A stretch of 64,000 nucleotides of DNA from a virus. Taxonomy: Duplodnaviria > Caudoviricetes. The first letter of the stretch is position 1; every line of letters begins with the position of its first letter. Below, one piece after another: positions 1 to 64,000 of this stretch. The notes under the pieces were generated by a model. The model saw nothing but the letters and a program-made list of their open reading frames with translations. It did no database searches and was not told the DNA's origin. The translations under genes were made by a program, and so were the position numbers. Where the stretch lies: IMG/VR virus record IMGVR_UViG_3300044695_004869. The stretch is one strand, 5' to 3'.

Positions 1-3000
1 AATTATGTTGTGTGACCCAAGATAATGTACCTGTTGGGTTGTTATATGTCACAATTAATTTAGGTGAAACTCCGGGAATATATAAAATATCACCAGAAAC
101 ATATCTATTAGAAACTAAAGGAAATAAAATTGTTAAAACCGGTGAGGCTAAATTTGTGACATCAACGGTGAAAAAATTAGCTGATGAACCTAAAGGAAAA
201 GTAAATTGACTTATCAACACCGTGTTATCATTTATTACCCCTAATCCGGCTCCTGAGGTAAACGGTAATTGAGTTACCGTAGATCCGGTTGGTGAAATTG
301 CAAATGGACATGGAGTATAATCAAAAATTCTTAAATTAATCCCACCATTTGTAAAAATTCTATTAGTTGTATGTGCAATGTCCGCACCACCACCAGCAAA
401 AGGTGGGAAATATTGAGTTAAATTAGTTATTGTATTTGTATTTTGATTATATGATACAATAGATCCGAGACCTGATAAACTACCATTAAATAAAATACTA
501 CAATCTTCCAAACAAGGTAATCCTCCGGTTGGAGTTACCGTTGGGGTTGATGTGTTAGTGGGAGTATTGGTTGGGGTTGGTGGTGGATCTGTTGGGGTAA
601 CGGTTGGGGTTGGGGTTGTTGTTGGTGTGGCTTGAGGTACAGTAAATTCTAATGTTATACAATCAGGACTTTGACCCGAATCAAAAGACCTAATTTGTAA
701 AAAGTTTCCAAGATAAGAAGTCGTGTATGGTGGTGAAGTTTGTATTGTATAAAGTTCACCAGTAAAAGATCCAATATAAAAAAAATTATTCCATTGGAAA
801 AATGATTGAATGTAAGTTGTTATTGGAATTGGTATGTCTATTTGTGGTTGCCAAGACCCACCAACATAATGAAATTGTGTCACATATTTTTGATTTGTTG
901 TTGTGTCAAATCCTATGGTAATCATTTTACCGTTGTTATTCATAACAACTTCACTTATTTGTCTATCATTTGATAAATTACTTAATTGATATAATATAGT
1001 TTTGGACCAAATAGGCCCACTAATATCCACCAATACAATATCAAAACCTGTGTTACCGAATCCCATAGATACTAATAAATTAGGGTTAACGATATTTGTT
1101 ATTGGATCTCTATACACACATAATGCACCCGCCAACCAACCTAATGATGGGATAGCGCTTGGAGATGCGATGTCTCTAGACCATACCGCACTCCAAGGGT
1201 TTAATGTAATATCCCATTCTCTTATTCCTTGAGAAGCGTCTTGACATATCCATAATTTTGTTGATGTATTTGTCATGCTTTGCCCAAGTACATTTAAGGA
1301 TTGGGGTAAATTAAGAAATGTTGTTGTATTTAAGGATGGGTTATACACATATAAACCAACACTTGTTGGTTGAGAGGTATCCAACCTTGTCATTATTAGA
1401 GGAAGACAATCCACATTAACAAATTCTGATGTTGGAGTCGGGGTTGGTGTTGGTGTTGGAGTTGGAGTTACACATGGATTACAAAATACGAATAAATCAC
1501 AAGTGTTTGTACAAGAATTATAAACGTAACCATCAGGACAAGAATATCCGGTTTCAAGATAATCACCATTTTCATTCTGAACTACATTTGATTGTGGTAC
1601 ACCACTCGATGTAAAAATAATATTCAAGTCATTTAATGTTGTTGCATTTACTAAATCAGATAAGGTATTGTCGTAAATTTCACAACCAAAAGCGGCTTGT
1701 CCCCCGTCATTCCAACCATATAGTTCAACCACATGATCCCCCGCATTTAATGTGATAGGGTAAACATTCCATCTTGTGAAAGGGTAATTAGCACCATACC
1801 AAGATGAAGTTGCTAATTTTGTATTCACAATAACATTACCATCCAAAACTAATTTAAAATGATTATCTGCGGCTACACCTATGTAATAAGTTTTTGTTTC
1901 TGATATGTTTATACAAGTACTAAATCCAAGCCACGTATTCAAAGGAATGTATGATGGTGAACTTGTCCAAATACCACATCTATTTAATGGTCCTGATGAT
2001 GTTGAAGATGTTGTATTTTTCCAAAGATTTGGTGTATTAATTACCGTATATAAACCATCGGTAATTGATGTTACGAAACCATTGATTGTGTAGTTTGGGT
2101 TGTACACATAAGTACCAAACCCCGAATAACTACTATATGGTCTTGGAATTAAATCATATTGTGATGTTGGTGGTGTCGATTCAATAGATGATATTGTATA
2201 ACAAGTTGTAGCATTATATGCACTATACGATGGCCCACACTGAACTTCACAATCTAATTCACAAATTGGAGTTGTTGGAGTCATAGTTGGTGTTGGAGTT
2301 GATGTTGGTGCAGGTTGTATTGAATCGCTACATATATCAACAATTGTACCCGCTTCACTACCAGGACCTGTTATGGTTAGTGTGGTAAAAGGTGAAGAGT
2401 TTGAGATTGTAAATGTTCCTCCACCATTTTGAGGATCTGGTGAACCTGATGGACAATATGTTGCGGTAACCACATTTCCATTTATTGTGGCACAACAATA
2501 ATCACAAGAAGATAAAACAGGATTTCCCGTGTTTGTTGTAAACGTAAACGATTCCGCACCTAAAGTACTAATACTATAATTAATTAATCTTATGACTATA
2601 TTATTTACAGGAGAACTAAAGTTTAATATGTATGTAAAAGATGTATTGGAAATTGAACTACCTAAAAACACTGTATTTGTTGCCGATCCCGGTGGTGTCA
2701 TACACCAAGCAAGAACTCCACCGAATGTTGTTGATAGAACATCACCAAAACCAGATGCGGTTATTGTTACACCATTTACAATTGTTGAAGATCCCAAACC
2801 AGGTAAGGAACTAACTGATTCACATATTGGACAAACAGGAGTGGGGGTTGGAGTTGGTGGGATCTGAGTTGGTGTTGCTGTTGGGGTTGTAATAAAAGTT
2901 GTTGTGGGTGTTGGTGTGGGGGTAACATCACCACAAGGGTAATCTATTGTACATGGACCACAACCACTTAATTGTTCCGTTAATTTATCGAATTCTATTA

Positions 3001-3421
3001 CTAATGTTGGGGTAGATGCCGAAGTGGCTATGGTAACACACCCCGTAAATTGTGCCGACTCAACATAATATGAATTACTTGATAATGGAAAAAAGTCAGG
3101 TGGAACATCTGTTATTTGAATTATTTCATTTGAATTACAACAAGATACAAATATTGCAACTCCGGGTAATGGACAGGCTCCTATTGATACATCAAAAATT
3201 GCATCTGAACATACGTTGTTCGGGTCGTAAATATACCAACCTGTGTCAGGAAATGAGTCACTATCCGTTGATCTTGGTTCACCACAGAAAATACCTTCCC
3301 AACCAATCATTTCCCAATAACCATTTATATTCCATCTAATTGTTAATGGAGTTGCATTATCGTATGCAACCCAAGAAGGTTTTGAGTTATAAAAACCAAT
3401 AAAATTAAAATCATAATTCAT
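1..3421 (-). CDS. Large modular Pro/Thr-linker, Cys-rich putative virion surface protein (partial, runs off left edge, at least 1140 aa)
   Basis: Not in the ORF track. I translated it manually: ATG at 3421 (MNYDFNFIGFYNSKPSW...) and no stop in that frame down to position 2. It has TPTPT linkers between beta-rich modules (e.g. YYIGVAADNHFKLVLDG, and a module shared with 37277..41074). Confidence 0.85.
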   Translation of the reverse strand, partial: MNYDFNFIGFYNSKPSWVAYDNATPLTIRWNINGYWEMIGWEGIFCGEPRSTDSDSFPDTGWYIYDPNNVCSDAIFDVSIGACPLPGVAIFVSCCNSNEIIQITDVPPDFFPLSSNSYYVESAQFTGCVTIATSASTPTLVIEFDKLTEQLSGCGPCTIDYPCGDVTPTPTPTTTFITTPTATPTQIPPTPTPTPVCPICESVSSLPGLGSSTIVNGVTITASGFGDVLSTTFGGVLAWCMTPPGSATNTVFLGSSISNTSFTYILNFSSPVNNIVIRLINYSISTLGAESFTFTTNTGNPVLSSCDYCCATINGNVVTATYCPSGSPDPQNGGGTFTISNSSPFTTLTITGPGSEAGTIVDICSDSIQPAPTSTPTPTMTPTTPICELDCEVQCGPSYSAYNATTCYTISSIESTPPTSQYDLIPRPYSSYSGFGTYVYNPNYTINGFVTSITDGLYTVINTPNLWKNTTSSTSSGPLNRCGIWTSSPSYIPLNTWLGFSTCINISETKTYYIGVAADNHFKLVLDGNVIVNTKLATSSWYGANYPFTRWNVYPITLNAGDHVVELYGWNDGGQAAFGCEIYDNTLSDLVNATTLNDLNIIFTSSGVPQSNVVQNENGDYLETGYSCPDGYVYNSCTNTCDLFVFCNPCVTPTPTPTPTPTPTSEFVNVDCLPLIMTRLDTSQPTSVGLYVYNPSLNTTTFLNLPQSLNVLGQSMTNTSTKLWICQDASQGIREWDITLNPWSAVWSRDIASPSAIPSLGWLAGALCVYRDPITNIVNPNLLVSMGFGNTGFDIVLVDISGPIWSKTILYQLSNLSNDRQISEVVMNNNGKMITIGFDTTTNQKYVTQFHYVGGSWQPQIDIPIPITTYIQSFFQWNNFFYIGSFTGELYTIQTSPPYTTSYLGNFLQIRSFDSGQSPDCITLEFTVPQATPTTTPTPTVTPTDPPPTPTNTPTNTSTPTVTPTGGLPCLEDCSILFNGSLSGLGSIVSYNQNTNTITNLTQYFPPFAGGGADIAHTTNRIFTNGGINLRIFDYTPCPFAISPTGSTVTQLPFTSGAGLGVINDNTVLISQFTFPLGSSANFFTVDVTNLASPVLTILFPLVSNRYVSGDILYIPGVSPKLIVTYNNPTGTLSWVTQHN

Positions 3422-3447
3422 TTTTTATATCGTTTGTTTCTTTAATT

Positions 3448-5352
3448 TTAACTACTAATAAATGTAAGTAAATTACTCGTTATCTGTCCACCACCAGCGG
3501 CTGGTGTTAAAAATGCGGTAATGGATATTCTATATGTATGACCCGGAGGACAAGGACCACCATATCCATTTGGATTAACCGCGCTCGGGAACCAATCCGT
3601 CTGTTGTATTGTTGCTCCTGCTTGCCATCCAGTAGGTCCGCTTGCCCAAAAATTTATCGATGTTTGAGTAGGTGGTATGTTTGTAACTTTCCAATGTACA
3701 AAATAACCATTTGGACTTGTTCCTCCGGCGTTTATATCTTCCATTAATAAACTATAACTAATAACATCGTTTGTTGTAAAATTAGTTAAAGACCAACCTA
3801 ACCCAACACTATAGTTTAGTCCACCACAAAGAGGGTGTTTAACCACAGAACTTAATGTTTGCCCATTTAAGAATTGAGGACTCTGAACCAATATGCTTTT
3901 CGCTCCAAAATTTGCACCTCCACATGGGGTTTGTGTCATTGTAGTCCCTATCTGATAATAATAATTATTTTGACAGGTTGTTGCGGTTGTGGGGTTCAAA
4001 CCGGGTAAAGTTATTGTATTGATTGATTGTGGATTAACCATAGGTGCATTTCCTCCCATCCACGCTTTTATACCTAATTCATTTGCAACGTCATCAATAC
4101 GACAAGCATAACCCAACCAATTATTGTAAGTTCCCGTAAATGTAAATACATTTTGAGGTCCACTTGTTACAGGATATGAAGGAATACTATTTCCCGCAAA
4201 AACTAAACCAATTACTTTAAAGTTTGGTGATGCTTGAGTACCAAAATTTGCGATAAGAATTGACCCCGAATCTCCCGCCGCACATGGCCATAAACAATGA
4301 GGTTGGGCGGGATTTCCACTTGGTTTATAAAATGCAATCAATCTGTTATCGAAAGATGCGTTTGTACCATACTGATTACCTCCAGAAATATGCCATTTAT
4401 ATCCACCAACCGTTTGGAATTGGTTTATCCCAAATAATCTTAACTCACAACCTGGTGTTCCTAAACCTTTTGGACCTGTTGATCTTCCAGTACTATATAA
4501 TTGTGGGTTAGTGACCATCAAATTATCAATTTCTGCTGTCGTTGCAAAAGGTAACGGAGAAGTCATCAAAGATTCAAATCCCGAAAATTTCCACGATTGA
4601 TTGAAATCTATTTTATTACAATCAATACTAACTAATGCTCCATCTACTCTGTTTTTGGGAACTAAAGAAGGTGAGGGGGACGAAATTCCGACGGTTAAGT
4701 TAATAGAACTATTTGGAACTAAAGGCACATATCTTACAACTTGACCATATTTTAAATTTGTTTGGAAACCGAATTCGCCTGGTTGACAAGAAAAATTGCT
4801 ATTTGGAAAAACTTCATTTGTTGTTGGGAAATTATTTCCTAAGAAAGCATTTAAATTTTGGTATTGGGCAGCAATTGAGTTACCAATAACAACGTGATTA
4901 TTAGTTAAACCAACCAATGCATTTGTATGAATGTCTTGAACTATCATCCCTAATGTTCCGACAGAATTACTTTGATTAACGGAAGTTATCGATATTCCAC
5001 CCTTTAGTGTTGCAAATGCGGATCTGTTTGTTGGTGCAGTCAAAATAAATGGTTCACAAATGGGTGGTGGGTTAGTAACGGGTGTTGTTCTACTACATTG
5101 TAATGCGTAAACCTCACCAACTTGTATTACATCAGTTTTAAGTGTTAAATTATCGTTTATATTTATTTCTGAAGGTAATATCTCATCTTCAGATAATTCT
5201 GATAATGGTTTTTTTTCTTTAACGGTAAAGGATATACAAATTTCACCAGTATATACACCGCCAGTTTGTTTGAAAGAATACCCAACACCAATATCGGATG
5301 GTGTTTTATCAGCCCATTCTTGAAGTTTTTTATTTATTTCATTTGTTATCAT
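3448..5352 (-). CDS. NAL1-like trypsin-fold serine protease fused to a C-terminal PEBP/YbhB-like domain
   Basis: Triad motifs GLTNNHVV (His), RVDGALV (Asp), AAGDSGS (Ser). N-terminal GVGYSFKQTGG...KKPLSEL...TDVIQVG is typical of NAL1-like proteases. C-terminus SYSLLMEDINA...FVHWKVTNIP...GYGGPCPPGHTY matches PEBP/YbhB motifs. Confidence 0.8.
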   Translation of the reverse strand: MITNEINKKLQEWADKTPSDIGVGYSFKQTGGVYTGEICISFTVKEKKPLSELSEDEILPSEININDNLTLKTDVIQVGEVYALQCSRTTPVTNPPPICEPFILTAPTNRSAFATLKGGISITSVNQSNSVGTLGMIVQDIHTNALVGLTNNHVVIGNSIAAQYQNLNAFLGNNFPTTNEVFPNSNFSCQPGEFGFQTNLKYGQVVRYVPLVPNSSINLTVGISSPSPSLVPKNRVDGALVSIDCNKIDFNQSWKFSGFESLMTSPLPFATTAEIDNLMVTNPQLYSTGRSTGPKGLGTPGCELRLFGINQFQTVGGYKWHISGGNQYGTNASFDNRLIAFYKPSGNPAQPHCLWPCAAGDSGSILIANFGTQASPNFKVIGLVFAGNSIPSYPVTSGPQNVFTFTGTYNNWLGYACRIDDVANELGIKAWMGGNAPMVNPQSINTITLPGLNPTTATTCQNNYYYQIGTTMTQTPCGGANFGAKSILVQSPQFLNGQTLSSVVKHPLCGGLNYSVGLGWSLTNFTTNDVISYSLLMEDINAGGTSPNGYFVHWKVTNIPPTQTSINFWASGPTGWQAGATIQQTDWFPSAVNPNGYGGPCPPGHTYRISITAFLTPAAGGGQITSNLLTFISS

Positions 5353-5362
5353 TATATTTTTT

Positions 5363-6991
5363 TTAACAACTTATATTAGGTATTATGGAGAATGAATCAA
5401 ATTGAACTATAACACCATTATTATCGGTTTTAACCATATAAAGATTTTGTAAATTATTACATAAACCCGCTTGGGTTGGATCGTAAATAAACCTCGTATT
5501 TGTTTGGGGTGGATATATACCTGATCCGTTAGGAGTAAAACCATAAATTGTTACACCTAACGCCGGTGGACTATAACATCTTTTGGTCATTCCTTGAACT
5601 TGGGATGTAACGTTACAATTAGTCAAGAAACAAGCGTAAGTGTTAAGTTGACATTTTATTAAACTATCACTTATAGAAGATGGGTTTGTTATAACAACAT
5701 TAGAACCATTACAAACAAGATTATAACCTGTTTGAAATGAGAATGGATTTGGTATAAGATTTCCTCTTGTTGGTGTTGGTGTTGGAGTTTTAGTTGGTGT
5801 TGGAGTTGGTAATGGGTTATTACAATCATATACCTCAAATGAAACAAATGACGTAAATGGACCAACCGCAGCATTAATAGGTGTTCGAGTTGGAGTTTTA
5901 GTTGGTGTTGGTGTTGGAGTTTTAGTTGGGGTTGGAGTTAATCCAAATGTTTTACTTGGTGTTGGTGTTGGTGTTTTGGTTGGTGTTGTTGTTTTAGTTG
6001 GTGTATTTGTAGGAGTTGGAGATAAACCAGGAGTAGGTGTTGGAGTTTTAGTAGGGGTTGGTGTTAATCCTTGTGTTGGGGTTGGAGTTTGTGTTGGTGT
6101 TTGTGTTGGTGTTTTTGTTGGAGTTATAGTATTTGTAGGAGTTATTGTTGGAGTATTTGTTGGAGTTGGTGTTGGAGCAACCGGATCACAAGTACAAACA
6201 CTTTGAAGATATGTGGTACCATTACCTGTAAGTTTAGTAACAGATAATGCACATAATGTTGATGCAAAATCAGTTGAAGCACTGATTGTTGTTGTATTTC
6301 CAGAACAATCTAAATAACTAAATGTTGATCCTGTCACATCTGTACCACCATAATAATACCAAGTATTACAACAAGGTATTGGTGTAGAACTTGGGGTTAA
6401 AGTTGGAGTTGGAGTTGGAGTTGATGTTTGTACAAAAATTTCCATACAAAATTCATCAATAGGTACAGGTTCTGGCGCAAATGGACTCGGAGCAGGAGTT
6501 CTTGTTGGTGTAGGAGTTGGTGTGTCTTGAGGACAACAACATTCGGTTGTTGTCGTTGTTGTTGTTGGACAAACATTATTACAACATGGGAATTCTATTA
6601 GGTAACAATCTTCATATGGTAAATCTTCCGCAATAAAACTTTCTTGCACATTAATAAATAATTGTTCTCTTATTGGTAATATTAAAACACCTTGAGAATT
6701 TCTTAATAAAAATTGAGCCTCATATCTTGCGGTTTTATTTGTATCTTGTGGTTTAAATTGATAATATATATAATATTCAGGTTCAGCGTTTGGATCCATA
6801 AGTTCTTTCTCAACAAATCCAGCAGGGCTTGTTGAGATTTTAGGGATCCCGGTTTCAACATTTGTCATTGAAAAGAAGATTGCGGACTCTTCGATCATAT
6901 CCATGAAAGAATTGTAATCGCTTCTACCGTCTTTTACAACCTGTAATTTTAATATAGGGAGAGTAGCATTCTTTTTAATGAAAAATTCCAT
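5363..6991 (-). CDS. Putative structural protein: BppU-like N-terminal domain plus Pro/Thr-rich mucin-like linkers
   Basis: N-terminal [16 protein letters not shown]...YYQF...[12 protein letters not shown] resembles baseplate-upper-type Ig-like domains. Long (TP)n tracts and CC doublets follow. Confidence 0.55.
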
Positions 6992-7004
6992 TTATAGTTT
7001 TTAC

Positions 7005-7012
7005 TATAAATA
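7005..7012 (-). promoter_or_regulatory. TATTTATA motif (putative late promoter element)
   Basis: 13 nt upstream of the ATG at 6991. The same motif recurs upstream of many structural genes. Confidence 0.55.
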
Positions 7013-7029
7013 TGCGGAACTACTAAATA

Positions 7030-8703
7030 TTAACATTCTTTTCTTAAAGAACCATCATAATGATCAAATCTATTATGTTCTGTCGGTGTTGATAATAAAA
7101 TACCTGATTTAATATTACCTTTTACCGTTTCTTGATAACAATGACTCATTAATGTTTGTTCATATGGGTTTTGGAATTTTGTTTTTAAATAACAATTATA
7201 ATTTCCTTCCTTAGACATTAATATTGGCCAATTAGATAAATAAATTTCTCCCGAAGCGTAAGGTACATTTCTATAAGATTTTATATGTTTAAATTCTAAA
7301 TTTGGTGAATTTGGGTCTAATCCCTGTTGAGGTAATTTAGGGTTATTTGGCCAATGAGATTCTCTAAATTCTTGAGGTACATTGTACCAAGCCCATTGTT
7401 TGTCGTGGGAACCATAAAACTCACTGAAGTTTAATTTTAAAAAATCAAAATTTTCATTTTTTAGAATGTCTAATGTTATGTCAAATATATTTTTAATATA
7501 TCTATTAAAACCATTTCTACAAGTTAAATCACCACCATTGTAAAAAAACATATCATCTTCAAAAAAATAATAATACCCTAAATCTTTTTGTTCATCAAAA
7601 TGTTCGGCAATAAATTGTCTACCACCAGTTATTCCGATGTTATCCTTTTTTATATGTTCAAACCCATATTCATTACATAATTTAATGTATTCATCTGTAG
7701 TTGTTAAATCGGTAGAATTATTTAAAAGAAATTTTTTAGTTTCATTAATAAATTTAGGGTCGTATTCTAACATTGAATTAATTAGAGTTCTAAATTGATT
7801 TGGAGAATTAAATGTAATAACATATACAGCAATATCACTACCCGTGTTTTTTACTTTAGGTTTTCTATTTTTATTTAAAATAACAACATCATCATTCTTG
7901 ACATCCTCAAAGAATTTATATAATAAACCATTACTTTCTATTTGACAATAATCAATTAATTGTGGGTTTTGATATAATAATATTGTGAATAAACTTTCTT
8001 CCGTACCCATATATCCTTTATTTAAAGTTTCAATAAGTAGGTTATAATATAAGACATTTATTTCGGCTATTGTATGTTTATCACCACCAAAAAAACCTCC
8101 TCTCGCAACAATATTTGGTTCAGAATTAGTTAATCTTTTCATTTCATTATATTCAAAACCATGTACTTCATTTTCCGCATCATATGGAAAACAAACAAAT
8201 AAAAAATTATTTGTTAATATTTTTATTTTATCCATTACTTTATCGTGAGTAAAGTAACCCCAATGAACAGTATTAGTTATTCCCGCATCTATCCAATAAA
8301 GTGAATCGGAATTAAATTTATCTAATATCCTTGCATCATTTAACAAAAACATTTTAGACATAACTAAAGGATTATACATTTCTAATCTTGCCTGTGTGGA
8401 ATCTTTTAACCATCCCGAAAGAGTATACCAACTTTCGTTTAATCTAATTTTTTGTATTTTTTCGTAATATTCATTATTTTTGAACCAATCAACACTTCTA
8501 ACTATAAATTGAGTATTATCTTCATTTCTAAATGTTTTGGCATACTCAATAACTTCTTGGTCACCAAAGATTATTAAATTACCATCATATTGTAAAAGGT
8601 CTTTGAATTTTTCTAAATATGTGTCAAAAGATCTTGACCATCCTTCAGTTAAATTACCTCTTCCGATATTCCATAAACCGGTTACTAATGTTGTGTTTTT
8701 CAT
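7030..8703 (-). CDS. HtrL/YibB-family domain fused to a GT2-like glycosyltransferase domain
   Basis: TLVTGLWNIGRG...YWIDAG...RGGFFGG...MGTEE (HtrL-like). C-terminal VYVITFNS...NIGITGGRQ...YYFFEDD (GT-A). Confidence 0.65.
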   Translation of the reverse strand: MKNTTLVTGLWNIGRGNLTEGWSRSFDTYLEKFKDLLQYDGNLIIFGDQEVIEYAKTFRNEDNTQFIVRSVDWFKNNEYYEKIQKIRLNESWYTLSGWLKDSTQARLEMYNPLVMSKMFLLNDARILDKFNSDSLYWIDAGITNTVHWGYFTHDKVMDKIKILTNNFLFVCFPYDAENEVHGFEYNEMKRLTNSEPNIVARGGFFGGDKHTIAEINVLYYNLLIETLNKGYMGTEESLFTILLYQNPQLIDYCQIESNGLLYKFFEDVKNDDVVILNKNRKPKVKNTGSDIAVYVITFNSPNQFRTLINSMLEYDPKFINETKKFLLNNSTDLTTTDEYIKLCNEYGFEHIKKDNIGITGGRQFIAEHFDEQKDLGYYYFFEDDMFFYNGGDLTCRNGFNRYIKNIFDITLDILKNENFDFLKLNFSEFYGSHDKQWAWYNVPQEFRESHWPNNPKLPQQGLDPNSPNLEFKHIKSYRNVPYASGEIYLSNWPILMSKEGNYNCYLKTKFQNPYEQTLMSHCYQETVKGNIKSGILLSTPTEHNRFDHYDGSLRKEC

Positions 8704-10509: not shown

Positions 10510-10513
10510 ACTT

Positions 10514-48460: not shown

Positions 48461-48521
48461 ATTTTTGGGGTTGATATTAATCTATTAATTGATTATATTT
48501 CTAATAAATTTATATTTTATT

Positions 48522-49736: not shown

Positions 49737-49739
49737 AAA

Positions 49740-53071: not shown

Positions 53072-53073
53072 TT

Positions 53074-54917: not shown

Positions 54918-54918
54918 T

Positions 54919-55560
54919 ATGGAAACTTTAGTTATTTTAGGATCGGCCGGTTTAGCAAAAGAGTTTTTTTTATATATAAAAAGATCTCAACCTCAGATTA
55001 AAAATTTTATTTTTGTTAATGATCTTAATGATGGTCAAAATGAAATTGTAATATCCGGAATTTCATATCCTGTTGTTAAAGATTGGAAATTTGATTCAAA
55101 TTACTTTTTTACGGTTGCGGTGGGAAGTCCTAAAATAAAAAATCTTTTAGTTCAAAAAGCATTAGATAGTGGGTTAATTCCCGCACCAACTTTTGTTGAT
55201 ATAGACGCCAAAATATTAGATAACACTATTAAGCTGGGTGTTGGGGGAATTATCTCACCCGGATGTATTTTAACTACAAATATAAGTATCGGAAATTATA
55301 CGACATTAAATTTAAATACAACAGTAGGTCATGACACAGTTATTGGTGATTTTGTGACAACTAACCCCGGTGTTCATATTTCAGGACATTGTAATATTGG
55401 AGATATGAATGAATTTGGTACAGGATCAATAGTAAGAGATAGGTTAACAATTGGTAGTAATAAAATGTTTGGGGCTCAAAGTGCAGTTGTAAAATCTTTA
55501 TTAGATGATAACCCTGAAATTTTTGTAGGTGTCCCAATTAAACTTTTAAATAAAAAATAA
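54919..55560 (+). CDS. PglD/NeuD/PerB-type sugar N/O-acetyltransferase (hexapeptide repeat)
   Basis: VILGSAGLAKE, hexapeptide repeats with TVGHD, VGVPIK. Confidence 0.85.
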   Translation: METLVILGSAGLAKEFFLYIKRSQPQIKNFIFVNDLNDGQNEIVISGISYPVVKDWKFDSNYFFTVAVGSPKIKNLLVQKALDSGLIPAPTFVDIDAKILDNTIKLGVGGIISPGCILTTNISIGNYTTLNLNTTVGHDTVIGDFVTTNPGVHISGHCNIGDMNEFGTGSIVRDRLTIGSNKMFGAQSAVVKSLLDDNPEIFVGVPIKLLNKK

Positions 55561-56342
55561 TGGGATTTGTAAGTGTTAAACTTATGGGTGGATTGGGAAA
55601 TTATTTATTTCAAATTGCATCTTCATATTCTAAATCAATTGACGATAATTTAAATTTTATACTAGATATAAATGACATTACAATTGTACATTCAAATCCA
55701 AACAACTATAAAAATAATATTTTTAGGAAATTAAATTTCCAACCATTAAATGAATCTTATTCACATTATAAAGAACCATCTTTTAATTATAATGCCATAC
55801 CAAAATTTAATAATAACACAAAAATGGTTGGGTATTTTCAAAGTGAGAAATATTTTTTAAATAACCAAGAAAAAATACTTAACATTTTTTCTATTGATGA
55901 TTTAACCAATAATTTACTCGAAACAAAATATGGTGATATATTAAATCACAATACTTGTTCTATACACGTAAGAAGAGGTGATTATGTTAGATTAAATCAA
56001 TATCATCCACCACAATCAATTGAATATTATAAAGAATCGATTAAAATTATTGGTGAGGATTCTCATTACTTAATTTTTTCGGATGATATAAATTGGTGTA
56101 AAGAAAATTTATCATTTATAAAAAATAAAACTTTTATTGAGGGTAATGATGATTATCAGGATTTATATTTAATGTCCATGTGTAAAAACAATATTATTGC
56201 AAATTCTTCATTTTCTTGGTGGGGGGCATGGTTAAATAAAAATGAAGATAAAAAAATCATATCACCAAAATTATGGTTTGGTGAAAAAAATAAACATTTA
56301 AACAGTAATGATATATACTGTAAAAACTGGATTGTGATATGA
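55560..56342 (+). CDS. GT11 alpha-1,2-fucosyl (or colitosyl) transferase
   Basis: GGLGNYLFQ, GYFQSEKYF, HVRRGDY, IFSDD, ANSSFSWWGAWL. Confidence 0.9.
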   Translation: MGFVSVKLMGGLGNYLFQIASSYSKSIDDNLNFILDINDITIVHSNPNNYKNNIFRKLNFQPLNESYSHYKEPSFNYNAIPKFNNNTKMVGYFQSEKYFLNNQEKILNIFSIDDLTNNLLETKYGDILNHNTCSIHVRRGDYVRLNQYHPPQSIEYYKESIKIIGEDSHYLIFSDDINWCKENLSFIKNKTFIEGNDDYQDLYLMSMCKNNIIANSSFSWWGAWLNKNEDKKIISPKLWFGEKNKHLNSNDIYCKNWIVI

Positions 56343-57127
56343 AAGAAATTAAACCAACTCTAATAGGAGGTATTCCAAATAAATTAGGAGATTTAGAAAA
56401 AAAAGTTATTGTATACGTAGACCAATATGGTATTAATTTAGACCATTATAATCATAATGATTACGATTATAAAATTTATTGGCAAATTGAGGGTCAAGGA
56501 GTAATACCTAGAAGAGAAAATAATATAAGTTTCCCAATACAACATAAAAATAAATTTGATCTTATTATTGCAAGTGACCCGACAATATTAAATGAGTGTT
56601 CAAACTCAGTTGTTTTCCCATTTGGGGATTGTTGGATTCCATTAGATGATCAAAAAATACATGATAAAAATAAATTACTTTCAATTATCGCATCTTCAAA
56701 AAATGAATTGCCAGGTCATAAATTAAGACATTTAACAATAAATAATATTGGTAATAAAATGGACATTTATGGTAGATGTTGTAATTATGTGGAAAATAAG
56801 ACGGACGCTTTAAAAGATTATATGTTTTCAATATGTACAGAAAATTTACAAATTGAAAATTGGTTCACCGAAAAATTAATTGATTGCCTTAGAACGGGAA
56901 CAATTCCTATATATTGGGGATGTCCAAATATTGGAAAGTATTTTAACCTTAATGGTTTTATAATTGTTAATTCAATAGAAGAAATTATTGATGTTGTTAA
57001 CAATTTATCCGAAGATCAATATTTTTCTAACTTAAAATATGTGGAGGAAAATTTTATTAAATCCGCTCAATATGGTAGTAATTTATTTGAAAGAGTTGAT
57101 AACGAAATAAAAAAAATAGTGAAATGA
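56339..57127 (+). CDS. GT10-like (alpha-1,3/4-fucosyltransferase-like) protein
   Basis: YMFSICTEN...WFTEKLIDCLRTGTIPIYWG. Confidence 0.75.
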   Translation: MKEIKPTLIGGIPNKLGDLEKKVIVYVDQYGINLDHYNHNDYDYKIYWQIEGQGVIPRRENNISFPIQHKNKFDLIIASDPTILNECSNSVVFPFGDCWIPLDDQKIHDKNKLLSIIASSKNELPGHKLRHLTINNIGNKMDIYGRCCNYVENKTDALKDYMFSICTENLQIENWFTEKLIDCLRTGTIPIYWGCPNIGKYFNLNGFIIVNSIEEIIDVVNNLSEDQYFSNLKYVEENFIKSAQYGSNLFERVDNEIKKIVK

Positions 57128-58035
57128 ATAAAATAGTAGTAACAGGAGGATCTGGATTAGTTGGTAAATATTTAAAAAAATATCTACCTGAGGCAATTTA
57201 TTTATCATCAAAGGATTTTGATTTAACTACTGAAGTGGGAGTTAGAAATATGTACCTAAAGTATAAACCGGATGTCGTTATTCACTTGGCGGCAAAAGTT
57301 GGTGGAATTATAGATAACATTAATAAACCCGCGGAGTATTATACTGAAAATGTAATGATGAATACATTATTAGTTGATTACGCATATAAAATGGATGTAA
57401 AAAGATTTATCGGTATTTTAAGTACTTGTATTTTTCCTGATGTAATGGAGACATATCCAATGAAAGAGGAAGATTTACATTTAGGTCCGCCAACGTTAAC
57501 TAATTTTTCATACGGATATGCGAAAAGAAGTTTAGCGGTTCAAATAGATGCGTACAACAAACAGTATAATACTAAATACCAATACTTAACTCCATGTAAT
57601 TTATATGGTGTTGGGGATAAAGATCATGAATCTAATAGTCATTTCATAACGGCATTGGTAAAGAAAATATTTGACGCCAAACAAAATGGTGAAAAATCAA
57701 TAACTTTATTTGGAGATGGATCTCCATTAAGACAATTTATGTTTGCCGATGATTTCGCCAAAATAATTTATCATGTTATCTCTGATGAAATTTATGATAG
57801 TTTTAATGTTGCAGGAAATGAAAATTTAACAATTAAAGATATGGCTAATATTGCATTAAATTCATGTGATTCAGAATTTTTAGAAATTAATTGGGATTTA
57901 TCTAAACCAAATGGACAACATAGAAAAGACGTATCCATAGAAAAATTAAAATCTTTACTACCTAATTTCAATCCCTTATCATTAACGGAAGGAATAAAAA
58001 TAGTATATAATAATTATTATGATAAAATTAGTTAA
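57124..58035 (+). CDS. fcl: GDP-L-fucose synthase / GDP-colitose synthase (Fcl/ColC-like)
   Basis: VTGGSGLVG, HLAAKVGGI, STCIFP, YGYAKR, PCNLYG, SHFITAL. Confidence 0.85.
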   Translation: MNKIVVTGGSGLVGKYLKKYLPEAIYLSSKDFDLTTEVGVRNMYLKYKPDVVIHLAAKVGGIIDNINKPAEYYTENVMMNTLLVDYAYKMDVKRFIGILSTCIFPDVMETYPMKEEDLHLGPPTLTNFSYGYAKRSLAVQIDAYNKQYNTKYQYLTPCNLYGVGDKDHESNSHFITALVKKIFDAKQNGEKSITLFGDGSPLRQFMFADDFAKIIYHVISDEIYDSFNVAGNENLTIKDMANIALNSCDSEFLEINWDLSKPNGQHRKDVSIEKLKSLLPNFNPLSLTEGIKIVYNNYYDKIS

Positions 58036-59179
58036 TGACACAATAAATAAAGATGATGTAAAATCCCTATGTGAATGGTTATTACAAGATGAAATACCTC
58101 GTTTAACTAAAGGTGATTTAACATTGAATCTAGAATCAAAATGGGCCGAAAAAATTGGTACAAAATATTCTGTTTATGTTAACTCAGGGTCTTCGGCAAT
58201 ACTTTTAACTTTAGCGGCATTACAACACACCAATCGTCTAAAAAATAATAAAATTATTGTCCCTGGTTTAAGTTGGGCAACCGATGTGAGCTCACCAATG
58301 TTATTGGGTATGGAACCAATATTATGTGATTGTAATTTAGAGGATCTATCTTGTGACTTAACTCATTTAGAAAATTTATTTATTGATTACTCCCCATCAT
58401 CATTTATTTTGGTTTCACCATTAGGTTTAGTGCCCGATATGGAAAGAATAATAAATCTTTGTGAGAAGTACGATGTTATATTGTTAGAAGATGTATGTGA
58501 GAGCATGGGATCTAAATATGAAAATAAATATTTAGGGTCTTTTGGATTTGCATCATTTTTCTCTATGTATTTTGGTCATCATTTAAGTACTATTGAAGGT
58601 GGTTTTATAAACACTAACGACACAGATTTTTATCATGCATTATTGATGATGAGAAGTCACGGTTGGGATAGAGATTTACCAAAAAGAATCCAAAATAAAT
58701 TACGAAACGAAAATGGAATTAGTGAATTTGATTCACTATATACATTCTATTTACCGGGATTTAATCTAAGATCAACGGATCTACAAGCATTTATTGGGTT
58801 AAGAGCGATTGACAAGTTAGATAATTATACTGAAAAAAGAAATAAAAATTTTCGATTATATAGGTCAACTATAAATGATAACCAATTAAACATTACAGAT
58901 ACCGAGAATAATTTCATTTCAAATTTTGCATATCCAATTGTAAACAAAAATAGGGAAATCATTATAAAGAAATTAATTGATAATGATATTGAAGTTAGAC
59001 CTTTAATTGCTGGTGATATGTCTAAAAAACCTATGTGGATTAAAAATTATGGAGAAGTATCATTACCTAATTGTCAATTAATTAATGAGTATGGATTTTA
59101 CATACCTAACCATCAGGATTTAACTTCTAAAGATATAAATATTATTTGTGATATTATTAATAATGTACAGATTGTATAA
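58019..59179 (+). CDS. colD: PLP-dependent GDP-4-keto-6-deoxymannose 3-dehydratase (ColD-like)
   Basis: LLEDVCESMG, FSMYFGHHLSTIEGG (His where aminotransferases have Lys), RSHGWDRDLP, YLPGFNLR. Confidence 0.75.
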   Translation: MIKLVNDTINKDDVKSLCEWLLQDEIPRLTKGDLTLNLESKWAEKIGTKYSVYVNSGSSAILLTLAALQHTNRLKNNKIIVPGLSWATDVSSPMLLGMEPILCDCNLEDLSCDLTHLENLFIDYSPSSFILVSPLGLVPDMERIINLCEKYDVILLEDVCESMGSKYENKYLGSFGFASFFSMYFGHHLSTIEGGFINTNDTDFYHALLMMRSHGWDRDLPKRIQNKLRNENGISEFDSLYTFYLPGFNLRSTDLQAFIGLRAIDKLDNYTEKRNKNFRLYRSTINDNQLNITDTENNFISNFAYPIVNKNREIIIKKLIDNDIEVRPLIAGDMSKKPMWIKNYGEVSLPNCQLINEYGFYIPNHQDLTSKDINIICDIINNVQIV

Positions 59180-59942
59180 ACCCGCCAGATCTAAAGAGGC
59201 GTATAGAGGTTTATTTTCTTATTTAACAGAATCTGTTTTAAACATGGTAAACTTCATAAAATTAAATGGGGATGATGATATAAAATATTATCATGATTTA
59301 TTTAACATACCGGGATATGGTAATCAAAATTTATATGATATCTATTTAACACAAGATGAAAATGATTATAAAATAAATAACCATCTTTATAAAAATATAG
59401 AATCATTTGAAAATATTTTAAATATTGATTGTTATGGTTTTGAAAAATATAATCAGGATCTTAGGTTAATTAGTGAAAAAGTTATTAATAAGTTTTTTAT
59501 ACCTAATAAAACTTTAAATGAATTAATTAGTAAAAGACACCATGAAATTAATTTTAATACAACAATTGGGGTTCATAGAAGATCAACCGATATAGGTACC
59601 CACCATAATATTATAAAAATGCATGATATTTTTAATGAAATTGAATTTAATGATTTTGATAATATTTTTTTAATGTGCGATAACATATATGATACAAATA
59701 AATTTAAACAAAGATATGGAAACAAACTTATAACATATGATGAGTTTACTTCCAAAGATATGAATTTACCTTTTTTTAAAATTAATAATTCAGTTGAAGA
59801 TATAGATAACCATATTAAAGAATTACTATTCGGTGTTTTTACATTATCAAAAACAAAAAATTTTATATGTACAAAATCTAATATATCTTCTTTCTGTGTT
59901 TTGTCCAATTCTAAATTAAACTATAAATTACTTAACAAATAA
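59163..59942 (+). CDS. NodZ/FUT8-like (GT23-like) fucosyltransferase
   Basis: GLFSYL, IGVHRRSTD, IFLMCD, LSKTKNFICTKSNIS. Start probably at the ATG at 59163. Confidence 0.6.
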   Translation: MYRLYKPARSKEAYRGLFSYLTESVLNMVNFIKLNGDDDIKYYHDLFNIPGYGNQNLYDIYLTQDENDYKINNHLYKNIESFENILNIDCYGFEKYNQDLRLISEKVINKFFIPNKTLNELISKRHHEINFNTTIGVHRRSTDIGTHHNIIKMHDIFNEIEFNDFDNIFLMCDNIYDTNKFKQRYGNKLITYDEFTSKDMNLPFFKINNSVEDIDNHIKELLFGVFTLSKTKNFICTKSNISSFCVLSNSKLNYKLLNK

Positions 59943-59943
59943 A

Positions 59944-60915
59944 ATGAAAAAAGCATTAATTACCGGCATAAATGGTCAAGATGGTTCATATTTAGCCGAA
60001 TTTCTTTTAGATAAAGGTTATGAGGTTCACGGAACTTTAAAAAGAAATTCAGTGTCTGAAAATCAAACATCTAGATTAGATAATGTATTTGAAAAAATAA
60101 AATTTCACTATGCCGACCTAACCGATCTTTCATCGTTAATTAGGATTATAAGTGAAATAAACCCAGACGAAATATATAATTTAGCGGCACAATCTCACGT
60201 TAGAATATCTTTTGATCAACCAATATATACCGCAAACGTAACTGGCTTAGGAACATTAAATGTTTTAGAGGCGGTTAAATTAATTAACCCAAAAATAAAA
60301 ATTTATCAGGCATCATCTTCAGAAATGTTTGGTAATAATATTGATGAAGACGGTTACCAAAGAGAGTCAACACCAATGAGCCCTGTTTCACCTTACGGAT
60401 GTGCTAAAGTTTTTAGTTATAATATATCCCGTAATTATAGAAATTCATATGGGATGTTTATCTCTAACGGAATATTATTCAACCATGAATCACCAAGACG
60501 AGGTACAAATTTTGTTACTAACAAAGTTTGCAAAGAAGCCGTTAAAATTAAATTAGGGTTAAGTAACGAACTTAAGTTGGGTAATTTAGACGCAACAAGA
60601 GATTGGGGTCATGCTAAGGATTATGTTGAAGCAATGTGGATGATTTTACAATTAGATAAGTCGGATGATTTTGTGTGTTCTACAGGTATATCCCACTCGG
60701 TTAAAGATCTAGTTGAATACGTTTTTAATAAATTAGAATTGGATTGGACAAAATATATTAAACAAGATGAGAAATTTTATAGACCTGAAGAACTTAACGA
60801 TCTTAAAGGCGACTCAAAAAAATTAAGAGAATTCACTAATTGGTCACCAAGATATACATTTGAAACTATGTTGGACGAAATGATAGAATATTGGTTAAAT
60901 ATCTTAAATAAATAA
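59944..60915 (+). CDS. gmd: GDP-mannose 4,6-dehydratase
   Basis: ALITGINGQDGSYLAEFLL, YNLAAQSHV, YQASSSEMFG, SPYGCAK, FNHESPRRG, RDWGHAKDYV. Confidence 0.95.
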   Translation: MKKALITGINGQDGSYLAEFLLDKGYEVHGTLKRNSVSENQTSRLDNVFEKIKFHYADLTDLSSLIRIISEINPDEIYNLAAQSHVRISFDQPIYTANVTGLGTLNVLEAVKLINPKIKIYQASSSEMFGNNIDEDGYQRESTPMSPVSPYGCAKVFSYNISRNYRNSYGMFISNGILFNHESPRRGTNFVTNKVCKEAVKIKLGLSNELKLGNLDATRDWGHAKDYVEAMWMILQLDKSDDFVCSTGISHSVKDLVEYVFNKLELDWTKYIKQDEKFYRPEELNDLKGDSKKLREFTNWSPRYTFETMLDEMIEYWLNILNK

Positions 60916-62566: not shown

Positions 62567-63628
62567 ATGAATCAAGAACAAATATCAAAGTTAGAGAGGT
62601 CAATCCAAAATATGAAGGATAAAACCTCAAGAATTTATTTTGTGGTACAAGATACCAAAGGTAATGCAAGAGCATCCATTAGATACATTTATCAAATGGC
62701 AATGGCTCTTAAAACAGACGGATACAACCCGATCATCTTACATGAAAAACCTGAATACTTTGGTGTGTCAGATTGGTTAGGAGATACCTATATGACAGAA
62801 TTACCACATAAAGCAATTGAGGGAAGTAACTTAGAAATTTCACCTGACGATCTAATTGTCATTCCTGAAATTTTTGGTTTTGTTATGGACCAAATTACTA
62901 AATTACCTTGTGGTAAAGTTGTGTTGTGTCAAGCTTATGATCACATATTTGAAACATTACAACCTGGTCAAACATGGTCTCAATTAGGTTTCTTTAAATG
63001 TATTACAACTTCTGAAAAACAAAAAGAATATGTTGGGTCAGTTATGAGAAACATCTCATCTAGTGTAATTACACCTGTTATTTCAGATGTGTTTAAAAAA
63101 CAAGAATTCCCACCAAAAACAATTATTTCAATTCACACTAGAGAACATAGAGATACTGTTAATTTAATTAAAACATTTTATTCAAAATTCCCACAATATA
63201 GATGGATTACATTCCGTGATATGAGAGGTTTATCTGAAAGTGAATTTGCAAACGCAATGAATGAAAGTTTTGTATCAGTTTGGGTAGATCAAACAAGTGG
63301 ATTTGGAACATATCCATTGGAATCAATGAAAATGGGAATTCCTGTAATTGGTTTGGTCCCTAATTTAGTACCAGAATGGATGAACGAAGATAATGGTATT
63401 TGGATTAATAACCCTAATATGTTGACTGATGTTATTGCGGACGTTGTTCAAAATTGGTTAGAGGATAATTTAAATCCAGCATTATATACCGAAATGGAAA
63501 AAACAATTTCTAATTACACTGATTTAACAAAATTCAATGAAGAAGTTATTAAAACATTTAGTGACATGATAAACACTCGTCTTGAAAATTTTGAAGACCA
63601 ATTATCTAAATTTATAACAATAGAATAA
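62567..63628 (+). CDS. GT-B (GT4-like) glycosyltransferase-like protein
   Basis: DLIVIPEIF, VLCQAY, VWVDQTSGFGTYPLESMKMGIPVIG. Confidence 0.65.
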   Translation: MNQEQISKLERSIQNMKDKTSRIYFVVQDTKGNARASIRYIYQMAMALKTDGYNPIILHEKPEYFGVSDWLGDTYMTELPHKAIEGSNLEISPDDLIVIPEIFGFVMDQITKLPCGKVVLCQAYDHIFETLQPGQTWSQLGFFKCITTSEKQKEYVGSVMRNISSSVITPVISDVFKKQEFPPKTIISIHTREHRDTVNLIKTFYSKFPQYRWITFRDMRGLSESEFANAMNESFVSVWVDQTSGFGTYPLESMKMGIPVIGLVPNLVPEWMNEDNGIWINNPNMLTDVIADVVQNWLEDNLNPALYTEMEKTISNYTDLTKFNEEVIKTFSDMINTRLENFEDQLSKFITIE

Positions 63629-63629
63629 T

Positions 63630-64000
63630 ATGAAAAATAAAAACACAATCTCAGTAATTTTACCAATTAAATCAGCGGTGTCTGGTTTCTTTGAGGAATA
63701 TTTAAATAAAGCAATTGAATCTATTAAAGTACAAAAAGAACAATTTGATGAATTAATTATCGTACACACAGATGAAAATTTATTAACTAAAGTTTTAAAA
63801 GATTTTGACTTTGGTGACTTAAATGTTAAATTAGAATCTTGGACAAAAGAAGCAAATTTTGCAGATCAGATTAATCATGGTGTTAGTTTGGCAACATCTA
63901 ATTGGATTACTATTTTTGAATTTGATGATGAATATGCAAACATTTGGGTTAAAAATGTTAAAAACTATATGGACATCTATCCAAATGTTGGGGCATTTTT
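63630..64000 (+). CDS. GT2-like glycosyltransferase (partial, runs off right edge)
   Basis: Not in the ORF track. MKNKNTISVILPIKS...INHGV...IFEFDDEY, open to the window end. Confidence 0.7.
   Translation, partial: MKNKNTISVILPIKSAVSGFFEEYLNKAIESIKVQKEQFDELIIVHTDENLLTKVLKDFDFGDLNVKLESWTKEANFADQINHGVSLATSNWITIFEFDDEYANIWVKNVKNYMDIYPNVGAF

Follow-up and report, generated by a model that had tools for sequence, protein, structure and literature searches.

The DNA described here is a stretch of 64,000 nucleotides (the window) from a virus of the Caudoviricetes (Duplodnaviria; IMG/VR record IMGVR_UViG_3300044695_004869). At its centre of interest is a glycosyltransferase (GT) of family GT60, encoded beside a mucin-like protein and surrounded by further repeat proteins and sugar genes. 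About 21 of the 44 window genes are related to glycans. The genes form two divergent arms that meet at about 45.4 kb. GC content is 0.26-0.37 and reaches 0.44-0.48 in one gene, and no tRNA gene was found in the 64 kb. A first-pass annotation, made from the letters alone, had read the region as encoding a candidate virion glycocalyx, that is, mucin- and collagen-like structural proteins encoded together with the enzymes that glycosylate them. In what follows, a Pro/Thr (PT) tract is a span of at least 20 amino acids (aa) in which Pro and Thr together account for at least 70% of the residues. From the start of the window to the meeting point of the two arms, the genes are as follows.

2-3421, minus strand: protein of at least 1140 aa, cut by the window start, with three PT tracts; Cys-rich, with a weak PA14-like stretch (E=0.0049, below the cut-off)
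3448-5352, minus strand: 634-aa protein with a protease-like N-terminus (phrog_20754) and a C-terminal PEBP domain (PF01161); second-last gene of the minus-strand array, before 2-3421
5363-6991, minus strand: PT-tract protein of 542 aa with a conserved N-terminal Ig-like domain that resembles BppU_N, minor-tail and baseplate proteins
7030-8703, minus strand: HtrL/YibB-like protein of 557 aa (PF09612, 6.8e-19), the conserved partner of GT60
8714-13347, minus strand: six short, packed or overlapping genes that vary among relatives, three of them unannotated open reading frames (ORFs)
10514-11050, minus strand, in that block: class-I methyltransferase
11053-11814, minus strand, in that block: weak GtrB-like GT2
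12493-13347, minus strand, in that block: GT11-like or PHROG glycosyltransferase (weak)
13344-14591, minus strand: soluble GT60 glycosyltransferase of 415 aa (PF11397, 4.2e-73), a clade core gene, with no transmembrane segment
14648-16447, minus strand: 599-aa mucin-like protein (T 30%, P 15%) with 295 of its 599 residues in PT tracts; it precedes GT60 by 56 nt
16521-17510, minus strand: Laminin_G_3 (ConA-like lectin fold) protein that matches PHROG 8510, 'virion structural protein'
17539-18477, minus strand: GT9-family glycosyltransferase of 312 aa (PF01075, 1.7e-13)
18809-21829, minus strand: two Laminin_G_3 proteins, the second also with a fibrinogen-C-like domain
21866-24814, plus strand: three-domain enzyme of 982 aa with a GT4-type GT, a BAHT domain (Aah/TibC-type protein O-heptosyltransferase) and an FkbM methyltransferase (Pfam, TIGR04414)
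24850-25548, minus strand: 232-aa PT-tract protein whose C-terminal module is rich in Cys
25559-36901, minus strand: collagen-like protein of 3780 aa (Pfam Collagen, PF01391, 1447 bits), made of Pro-free Gly-Thr-X triplets, with 616 N-x-S/T sites
36936-37244, minus strand: 102-aa protein, a paralogue of a module of 14648-16447
37277-41074, minus strand: 1265-aa protein that combines PT tracts with two Laminin_G_3 domains
41109-45398, minus strand: 1429-aa clade-core protein; conservation of its N-terminal 740 aa extends over 78 viral loci, and PT linkers lie at domain borders

Profile searches support 14 window genes, with 16 domains, as glycosyltransferases. Their starts are at 7030, 11053 (weak), 12493 (weak), 13344, 17539, 21866 (two domains), 48489 (weak), 51064 (two domains), 52442, 53056, 55560, 56339, 62567 (weak) and 63630. 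Four unannotated ORFs (8714, 9586, 11816 and 59148) lie inside the same overlapping-gene operons, so the 'about 18' GTs of the first-pass annotation are best taken as an upper count. Its other tallies were recovered: two methyltransferase domains (10514-11050 and the FkbM part of 21866-24814) and five nucleotide-sugar enzymes are found by profiles, and the six Pro/Thr-rich proteins, the 3780-aa Gly-Thr-X protein and the GT genes interleaved with genes for repeat proteins all lie where it had placed them.

The region from 16447 down to 2 consists of twelve minus-strand genes that are at most 56 nt apart, with three 4-nt overlaps. In order, this operon encodes a PT protein, GT60, six small GT or methyltransferase genes, the HtrL/YibB-like GT, the BppU-like PT protein, the protease/PEBP protein and a further PT protein, which leaves the window. 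PT tracts are present in six window proteins (2-3421, 5363-6991, 14648-16447, 24850-25548, 37277-41074 and 41109-45398). Together these tracts comprise 963 residues, of which 44% are Thr, 25% Pro and 7% Asn. Thr alternates in them with great regularity: for 364 of 420 Thr, another Thr is found at i+2, and the residue between the two is chosen in the order P > N > I > S > V > K. All six proteins are richer in Cys than the window as a whole (1.8-6.0% vs a mean of 1.6%), and a hydrophobic, signal-peptide-like N-terminal segment was found in none of them. In PHROGs they match only phrog_15511, a family of unknown function that is rich in Pro and Thr as well. In 14648-16447, the PT tract follows an N-terminal module of approximately 70 aa, which recurs in the 102-aa protein at 36936-37244 (36% identity, E 1e-11) and may represent a shared attachment or recognition unit.

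The GT60 assignment is firm, as the first-pass annotation had proposed. The protein at 13344-14591 scores 247.3 bits, with a PF11397 cut-off of 21, and is matched over profile positions 94-349 and in a second stretch, which in relatives corresponds to profile positions 2-44. By position and composition, its neighbour at 14648-16447 is the prime candidate acceptor. A predicted complex of GT60 with a 40-aa PT tract scored 0.01, a value that counts neither for nor against binding.

The conservation of this pair was followed in related IMG/VR loci, of which 78 were collected through the 1429-aa core protein and 80 through GT60. The contigs that carry them reach 322 kb, and several are complete according to CheckV. 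All four near-complete relatives have GT60, and at least 199 viral contigs encode it at 75-95% identity. When the window genes were mapped onto a complete 318-kb relative (G001), GT60 was also the best conserved of all window proteins, at 85%. Around it, the HtrL/YibB-like GT is found in 74 of 80 GT60 loci and the N-terminal domain of 5363-6991 in 69 of 80, the small GTs in the interval being variable. In 52 of 78 loci, a PT tract is encoded by the gene directly upstream of GT60; once duplicates are removed, the count is 33 of 51. With a random ORF drawn from the same locus, 7.4 +/- 2.4 such neighbours would be expected, and a count of 33 was reached in none of 20,000 resamplings. The excess largely reflects one inherited synteny. 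The tracts encoded upstream of GT60 range from 25 to 953 residues. PT tracts are rare elsewhere, being present in 9 of the 393 ORFs of G001, and 10 of its 11 PT-tract or collagen-like ORFs (two of which are the end pieces of the collagen-like gene) fall within a tail-to-head span that was defined post hoc.

Outside the clade, 12 GT60 homologues of 37-50% identity were taken, one per 50%-identity cluster, and the contexts of 10 were read. A PT-tract protein lies within two genes of GT60 in three of these (L184, L186 and L191), when about 0.9 would be expected from the base rate in G001; this adjacency lends the pairing weak support. Marks of a phage are a Peptidase_S74 tail-fibre gene for L186 and, for L184, a GH108 lysozyme gene on a contig that carries the same protein, while L191 is phage-like only by its large ORFs devoid of Pfam matches. 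The HtrL/YibB partner also recurs beside distant GT60 homologues (L183, L191 and L192).

The GT60 family itself comprises about 4,700 50%-identity clusters (E<=1e-3), far above what its eukaryote-centred description would suggest. Many of its representatives (for instance, P0121, P0123 and P0124) reach giant sizes, with two to four GT60 domains in 1300-2461 aa. Another homologue, P0138, is 50% identical to the window protein and directly follows a 1341-aa ORF; its contig encodes a poxvirus-type poly(A) polymerase catalytic domain (PF19244) and may derive from a giant virus.

Some of the PT proteins and their neighbours carry folds of a virion type. The N-terminal 140 aa of 5363-6991 were modelled by AlphaFold2 as an Ig-like sandwich with a predicted local distance difference test (pLDDT) score of 83. 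This domain has 83 matches in BFVD (E<=1e-3), and those that bear a name are phage minor tail, BppU, tail fibre and baseplate proteins. In the PDB, baseplate chains of phages NF5 and DT57C are matched with modest TM-scores of 0.42-0.47, among generic Ig folds. The 5363-6991 protein is probably a tail or baseplate fibre. Lectin-fold domains of the Laminin_G_3 type are found in four proteins, two of which match a PHROG 'virion structural protein', and the core protein at 41109-45398 shows ConA-like features in the ESM Atlas.

The window was also searched for the apparatus that assembles glycans on a lipid carrier. No window protein has two or more transmembrane-like segments, and no such segment is present in any profile-supported GT of the window; a membrane anchor that the GT at 48489 seemed to have at its N-terminus was discarded as an artefact of an upstream TTG start. 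Pfam searches of the window proteins gave no match to flippase, polymerase, Gtr or priming transferase families, in agreement with the first-pass annotation, which had seen no flippase, polymerase or Gtr gene. In G001, no ORF has 8-12 transmembrane-like segments, the maximum being five in one 1762-aa ORF. With no carrier or export route seen in the window or in G001, and no signal-like segment on the PT proteins, glycosylation of the latter would have to be direct and take place in the cytoplasm. BAHT enzymes are cytoplasmic and act directly on the polypeptide. GT60 enzymes, in turn, transfer alpha-GlcNAc onto Thr of Thr-rich mucins without a dolichol intermediate (PMC3769586).

The second protein-type enzyme is the one encoded at 21866-24814, whose true start is probably the ATG at about 21887. 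Its residues 413-752 score 287.4 bits for TIGR04414, above the equivalog cut-off of 200, and cover model positions 27-374 of 374. The first-pass assignment of an Aah/TibC enzyme stands for this domain and does not extend to the GT9 at 17539-18477, which scores only 41 bits and has as its best PDB match WaaF, a heptosyltransferase of lipopolysaccharide (LPS) synthesis (E 0.0015). A homologue of the three-domain enzyme is found at the same position in G001. Profile searches detected no autotransporter domain among the window proteins.

Beyond the PT gene at 24850-25548 lies the collagen-like gene. Its product consists of a 52-aa N-terminus, 409 triplets, a 165-aa insert, 714 triplets and a 194-aa C-terminal domain. 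The two runs keep the Gly-X-Y periodicity of PF01391 without interruption, and the 1123 triplets are mainly GTN (600), GTS (336), GTD (120) and GSS (45). Helix-stabilising Pro/Hyp or charge pairs are missing, as the triplet runs are essentially without Pro: only 10 Pro lie between the first and the last triplet, mostly within the 165-aa insert, and the sole frequent charged residue is Asp (128). In the Gly codons of the 1123 triplets, positions 1 and 2 are invariant and position 3 has an entropy of 1.4 bits. The DNA repeat copies match at 63-96%, the long arrays that span most of the gene at about 65-70%. Codon-position entropy and diverged repeats together indicate a selected frame and exclude a collapsed repeat or an assembly artefact. 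The 194-aa C-terminal domain has a match to Phage_cement_2 (E=0.0023, below the Pfam cut-off), and its nearest ESM Atlas cluster, at a score of 0.92, itself carries Phage_cement_2. These are weak leads towards a fibre that would be anchored to the head. The gene also contains long spurious ORFs of up to 2161 aa in other frames or on the opposite strand (26109-32594, plus; 28126-32571, minus; 33228-36791, plus; and others), and a gene caller could choose the wrong frame here.

The plus-strand arm contributes further GTs together with the enzymes for making activated sugars.

48489-52455, plus strand: conserved block with a GT-B-type GT (48489-49736, weak), a PolB-exo-like exonuclease, a dUTPase and a double GT2 (51064-52455)
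52442-60915, plus strand: strain-variable sugar cassette, absent from G001
52442-53071, plus strand: GT25-family gene (profile match)
53766-54917, plus strand: DegT aminotransferase (profile match)
54919-55560, plus strand: NeuD/PglB/VioB acetyltransferase (profile match)
57124-58035, plus strand: Fcl-like reductase (205 bits)
58019-59179, plus strand: RfbH/ColD-like DegT (profile match)
59944-60915, plus strand: GDP-mannose 4,6-dehydratase (GMD; 403 bits)
62567-63998, plus strand: weak GT-B-type GT, then a GT2 cut short by the window end; the two genes are conserved in G001

Within the cassette, the order is GT25, GT2, DegT, acetyltransferase, GT11, GT10, Fcl-like reductase, RfbH/ColD-like DegT, an ORF without assignment and GMD, and all five nucleotide-sugar enzymes of the window belong to it. 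Judging by family names, two branches may leave GMD: one through the Fcl-like reductase to fucose, or to colitose with the RfbH/ColD-like DegT, and the other through aminotransferase and acetyltransferase to a sugar resembling N-acetyl-perosamine. Genes of the fucosyltransferase families GT10 and GT11 adjoin these enzymes. The window thus combines a nucleotide-sugar pathway with soluble GTs, as virus-autonomous glycosylation does. Family GT25 includes animal collagen galactosyltransferases. The GT domain of Mimivirus L230 resembles human GLT25D1, and L230 modifies the Mimivirus collagen on hydroxylysine (PMC9614988). Such chemistry is not directly applicable here, because the triplets of 25559-36901 contain no Lys.

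Two apparently interrupted genes were seen in the relatives. The dUTPase homologue of G001 is split in two pieces (15375-16055 and 16963-17268) about 900 bp apart, while the window gene (50459-51067) is intact; an intron, an intein or a homing-endonuclease insertion could be the cause. In a 322-kb relative (G006, the record of L141), a thymidylate-synthase-family match at 5332-7607 falls into three pieces on the same strand, and this looks like another interrupted gene.

The relatives also reveal which kind of virus the window comes from. A Terminase_6N large terminase (TerL) is encoded in 4/4 relative records, and 3/3 complete relatives contain a sheath-like ORF (1130 aa; range 1112-1195 aa), whose tail-sheath match is weak, at 26-31 bits and just below the cut-off of 31.4. 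A bS21 gene was found in three of the five relative records searched, and one of its carriers is a 63-kb contig whose proteins are 77-98% identical to those of the window. These relatives, of 256-322 kb, uphold the view of the first-pass annotation that the contig belongs to a phage and not to a cell, and a giant-virus origin was rejected on the strength of their TerL, sheath-like ORF and bS21 and of the BppU-like fold. The block of G001 keeps the order of the window, with GT60 at 300.2 kb, the PT protein at 301.6 kb, GT4-BAHT at 303.6 kb, the collagen-like gene across the contig ends, the core protein at 8.2 kb and the plus-strand arm at 10.4-28.6 kb. It lies between the sheath-like ORF (282 kb) and bS21/TerL (44-49 kb), and the glyco and fibre region therefore sits within the morphogenesis region. 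The clade that encodes bS21 consists of myophages of freshwater Bacteroidetes (Chen et al. 2022, PMC9723584), for which that study mentions neither glycosyltransferases nor collagen. The source of the window is accordingly a freshwater jumbo myophage of about 300 kb from this clade, with a host predicted among the Bacteroidota, and the window is best explained as its fibre and decoration region.

A 9.3-kb piece of the window was found nearly identical in at least 24 lake-water metagenome runs of 2020-2024. A megablast search with 23 kb of the window against INPHARED phages gave no match, and tblastn with the core protein returned only two records of a 735-kb uncultured phage (LR756501 and LR756503, with identical coordinates) at 26% identity. 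Scans for promoters, terminators and TAnnTTTG gave counts at or below the shuffled expectation. Three short contigs (L178-L180), with a GT60 70-82% identical to that of the window, have been binned into metagenome-assembled genomes of Bacteroidetes and Saprospiraceae; they are probably phage fragments binned together with their hosts, and hence offer a lead to the host.

Taken together, these features make it somewhat probable that the phage glycosylates its own fibre and decoration proteins in the cytoplasm, by O-linkage and without a carrier, with GT60 starting the glycans on PT tracts. Late in infection, soluble phage GTs would modify the phage structural proteins directly in the host cytoplasm, with no lipid carrier. 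GT60 would initiate O-glycans on the Thr of (Thr-X)n tracts, probably with alpha-GlcNAc, and the HtrL/YibB-like enzyme, along with the strain-variable small GTs and methyltransferases of the operon, would extend and cap them. The GT4-BAHT-FkbM enzyme would add a methylated sugar pair to Ser/Thr of another repeat protein, for which the Gly-Thr-Ser/Asn collagen-like fibre is the candidate. For the outer sugars, the plus-strand cassette would provide GDP-fucose (or colitose), an N-acetylated 4-amino-6-deoxyhexose, and fucosyl- and other transferases. Tail and head would then bear glycosylated fibres and linkers that vary with the strain. Gene content, family membership, synteny, conservation, solubility and the tail-type fold of one PT protein are established; from them we infer every acceptor, every sugar and the location in the virion.

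A more ambitious version of this proposal is doubtful. It envisages a eukaryote-style mucin and collagen glycocalyx made wholly in the bacterial cytoplasm. GT60 would place alpha-GlcNAc on Thr of (Thr-Pro/Asn)n tracts of tail and head, and these would be extended to strain-specific fucosylated, aminosugar-containing and methylated glycans. The Pro-free Gly-Thr-X protein would form a head fibre of up to about 1 micrometre, heptosylated and methylated, whose sugars would be required for the triple helix. GT60 with HtrL/YibB would then be a widespread O-glycosylation module of aquatic phages.

A number of observations count against glycosylation of the virion by these enzymes. Concerning GT60, the counts of its pairing with PT proteins in the clade are not independent, and 18 of the 51 upstream neighbours have neither a PT tract nor a tract rich in Ser, Thr or Pro. 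To our knowledge, all characterised GT60 enzymes are eukaryotic, and we know of no prokaryotic or viral member with a known acceptor. The closest cellular homologue, from Niabella (52% identity), has no PT neighbour. Two distant homologues (L185 and L187) belong to clusters like those for ribosomally synthesised and post-translationally modified peptides (RiPPs), one with PqqD and ScmC and the other with a radical SAM enzyme and a Peptidase_C39 ABC exporter, and a third (L189) stands beside DnaB and a DNA methylase. The contexts of L185 and L187 suggest peptide glycosylation by prokaryotic GT60.

Further points concern the presumed acceptors and sugars. Among orthologues of the core protein, the PT linkers at domain borders range from absent to about 700 aa (0 to 13 tracts). 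Such variability is the behaviour of a linker and is compatible with glycosylated or bare linkers alike. The AlphaFold2 model of residues 1-740 of this protein, from a 24-sequence alignment, reached a pLDDT of only 35 and was left out of the fold search, and the cement-like match of the collagen C-terminal domain falls short of the Pfam cut-off. No gmhA and no rfaE kinase was found in five relatives. A phage-made supply of ADP-heptose for BAHT was rejected for this reason, and the donor could come from the host. Finally, the plus-strand GTs adjoin the dUTPase, the exonuclease and PhoH rather than fibre genes. The glycocalyx proposed by the first-pass annotation is thus partly supported; it retains the protein-type GTs, the synteny and the BppU-like fold in its favour, and is qualified by what has been said of GT60 and BAHT, namely eukaryotic characterised members, mixed contexts and a missing heptose pathway.

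The best alternative is the remodelling of the host envelope, which we regard as unlikely yet serious. According to it, the GTs and sugar enzymes act on LPS, capsule, S-layer or host glycoproteins and block superinfection or assist release, and PT tracts are plain linkers, whose length is free to vary among orthologues. GT-rich 'host recognition clusters' of aquatic myophages are usually interpreted in this way. For instance, the hypervariable regions of pelagimyophages, with tail fibres and many GTs, have been interpreted as modifying O-chains (PMC7029224), and a 2026 preprint classes the GTs of huge phages as envelope-associated. It is strongest for the plus-strand cassette, which is strain-variable as O-antigen loci are; GT2, GT9, GT10, GT11, GT25, HtrL, GMD, Fcl, DegT and acetyltransferase genes are all typical of such loci. 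Nevertheless, a priming phosphoglycosyltransferase, flippase, polymerase, ligase, Gtr protein or ABC exporter is lacking in the window, and the scarcity of transmembrane-like segments in the window and in G001 speaks against it too. In addition, the two best-defined GTs belong to protein-acting families, and GT60 is a conserved core gene of a fibre-gene operon and not a variable moron. The absence of carrier genes only weakens this alternative, as the phage could borrow the carrier and export steps of its host.

It is improbable that GT60 and BAHT serve other protein or peptide targets, either host proteins or small phage peptides, with the PT proteins acting as adhesins or decoys that are secreted or released on lysis. 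The RiPP-like contexts of bacterial GT60 homologues fit such a role, and the substrates of BAHT enzymes, in the description of the family, are autotransporters of the cell surface. However, the PT proteins have no signal-peptide-like hydrophobic N-terminus, one of them carries a BppU-like tail-attachment domain, several have lectin-fold domains matched to a PHROG virion protein, and the whole block is situated between the tail and head modules of the relatives.

Sugar hypermodification of DNA has been considered as well. In this case, some of the GTs, and above all the conserved ones at 48489-49736 and 51064-52455 near the dUTPase and the exonuclease, would glycosylate modified bases of the phage as a protection against restriction. 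Phage GT-A and GT-B enzymes do build mono- to oligosaccharides on 5-hydroxymethylcytosine, often near thymidylate-synthase-like or DNA-metabolism genes, and such pathways are normally clustered (10.1101/2023.12.21.572611). A ThyA-family gene is present in four of five relatives, but its ORF scores as an ordinary thymidylate synthase (290 bits) and lies more than 100 kb from the glyco genes of G001. Profile searches found neither a 5-methylcytosine dioxygenase nor a pyrimidine hydroxymethylase in the window, and a Tet/JBP dioxygenase was detected in 0/5 relatives, which is weak evidence since that search was positive nowhere. The distant GT60 homologue between DnaB and an N6/N4 DNA methylase notwithstanding, no role on DNA is known for fucose or aminosugar pathways or for GT10/GT11, GT60 or BAHT, and this explanation is the least probable of all.

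The preferred reading, cytoplasmic O-glycosylation of phage fibre and decoration proteins, has several precedents, and its novelty is lower than the first-pass annotation implied, given the cases of mycobacteriophages, XacN1 and giant viruses. Virion glycosylation by virus-encoded enzymes is established for Che8 and Rita, for chloroviruses and for Mimivirus. In mycobacteriophages Che8 and Rita, capsid glycans are produced by phage-encoded GTs (Freeman et al. 2023, cited in PMC11256854). As summarised there, the glycans are covalently bound to virion proteins and have been proposed to form a shield (PMC11256854). The window resembles these phages in its GTs; its PT tracts lie on the BppU-like protein and on lectin-fold, fibre-like proteins, which are candidate virion components. 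It differs in that glycosylation is experimentally shown for Che8 and Rita, which, in the same account, are 60-kb siphophages of Actinobacteria with few GTs, and is deduced from genes here. The window has at least 14 GTs, its own sugar-nucleotide pathways, GT60 and BAHT enzymes and long PT- or collagen-like carriers, and would belong to a Bacteroidota myophage of about 300 kb. For the jumbo phage XacN1, virion glycoproteins have also been suggested (PMC5852040).

Giant viruses offer a parallel outside the phages. Mimivirus has a fibril glycocalyx with collagen-like proteins, and the capsid of Chlorovirus PBCV-1 carries glycans (PMC9614988). Shared features are GMD with GDP-fucose synthase in chloroviruses, aminotransferase with acetyltransferase in Mimivirus, cytoplasmic GTs that work without endoplasmic reticulum or Golgi, collagen-like proteins low in proline, and variable, clade-specific glyco clusters (PMC9614988). 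A064R of PBCV-1 is a GT-GT-methyltransferase, which the enzyme at 21866-24814 resembles in architecture only, being of another sequence family (PMC9614988). Unlike the source of the window, these are eukaryotic viruses (Nucleocytoviricota) with unrelated capsids.

Individual components have relatives elsewhere. Gnt1 is cytoplasmic and its acceptor is hydroxyproline. The phage GT60 is like this enzyme in lacking a membrane anchor. Hydroxyproline is, however, an unlikely acceptor for the phage GT60, as no 2OG-FeII_Oxy_3 prolyl hydroxylase was found in the relatives, and Thr is favoured on that account. Dictyostelium Gnt1/Gnt2 and Trypanosoma cruzi TcOGNT2 share PF11397 with the phage enzyme over nearly its whole length and work without a lipid intermediate (PMC3769586), and the candidate acceptor that adjoins the phage enzyme is Thr-rich and mucin-like. 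Aah and TibC are cytoplasmic and modify Ser of repeat-rich surface proteins, and the phage domain is akin to them above the TIGR04414 cut-off; it differs in its fusion to GT4 and FkbM, in having no autotransporter nearby and in the lack of an ADP-heptose pathway in the relatives. BclA of Bacillus has Thr-rich Gly-X-Y repeats and a C-terminal globular domain, and forms the glycosylated, hair-like nap of the exosporium. Its repeats are mostly GPT and extend over tens to a few hundred residues, whereas the 1123 triplets of the window (GTN, GTS, GTD) are Pro-free. The 'host recognition cluster' of pelagimyophages is likewise a hypervariable region of aquatic myophages with fibre genes and many GTs and sugar enzymes, but it is dominated by GT8, and no GT60, BAHT or pairing with PT- or collagen-like proteins has been reported for it (PMC7029224).

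What would be new here is the scale, with at least 14 GTs and dedicated sugar pathways, the GT60 and BAHT enzyme types, the mucin- and collagen-like carriers and the host group. If the preferred reading is true, virion glycosylation would extend beyond a few actinobacteriophages to an abundant and persistent clade of freshwater jumbo phages, with a richer and strain-variable toolkit. A prokaryotic or viral member of the GT60 family would, moreover, have its acceptor assigned for the first time. The soluble, carrier-free O-glycosylation enzymes, with their simple repeat acceptors, could serve in glycoengineering. Finally, the 'auxiliary' GTs of aquatic phages would become genes for the tailoring of structural proteins.

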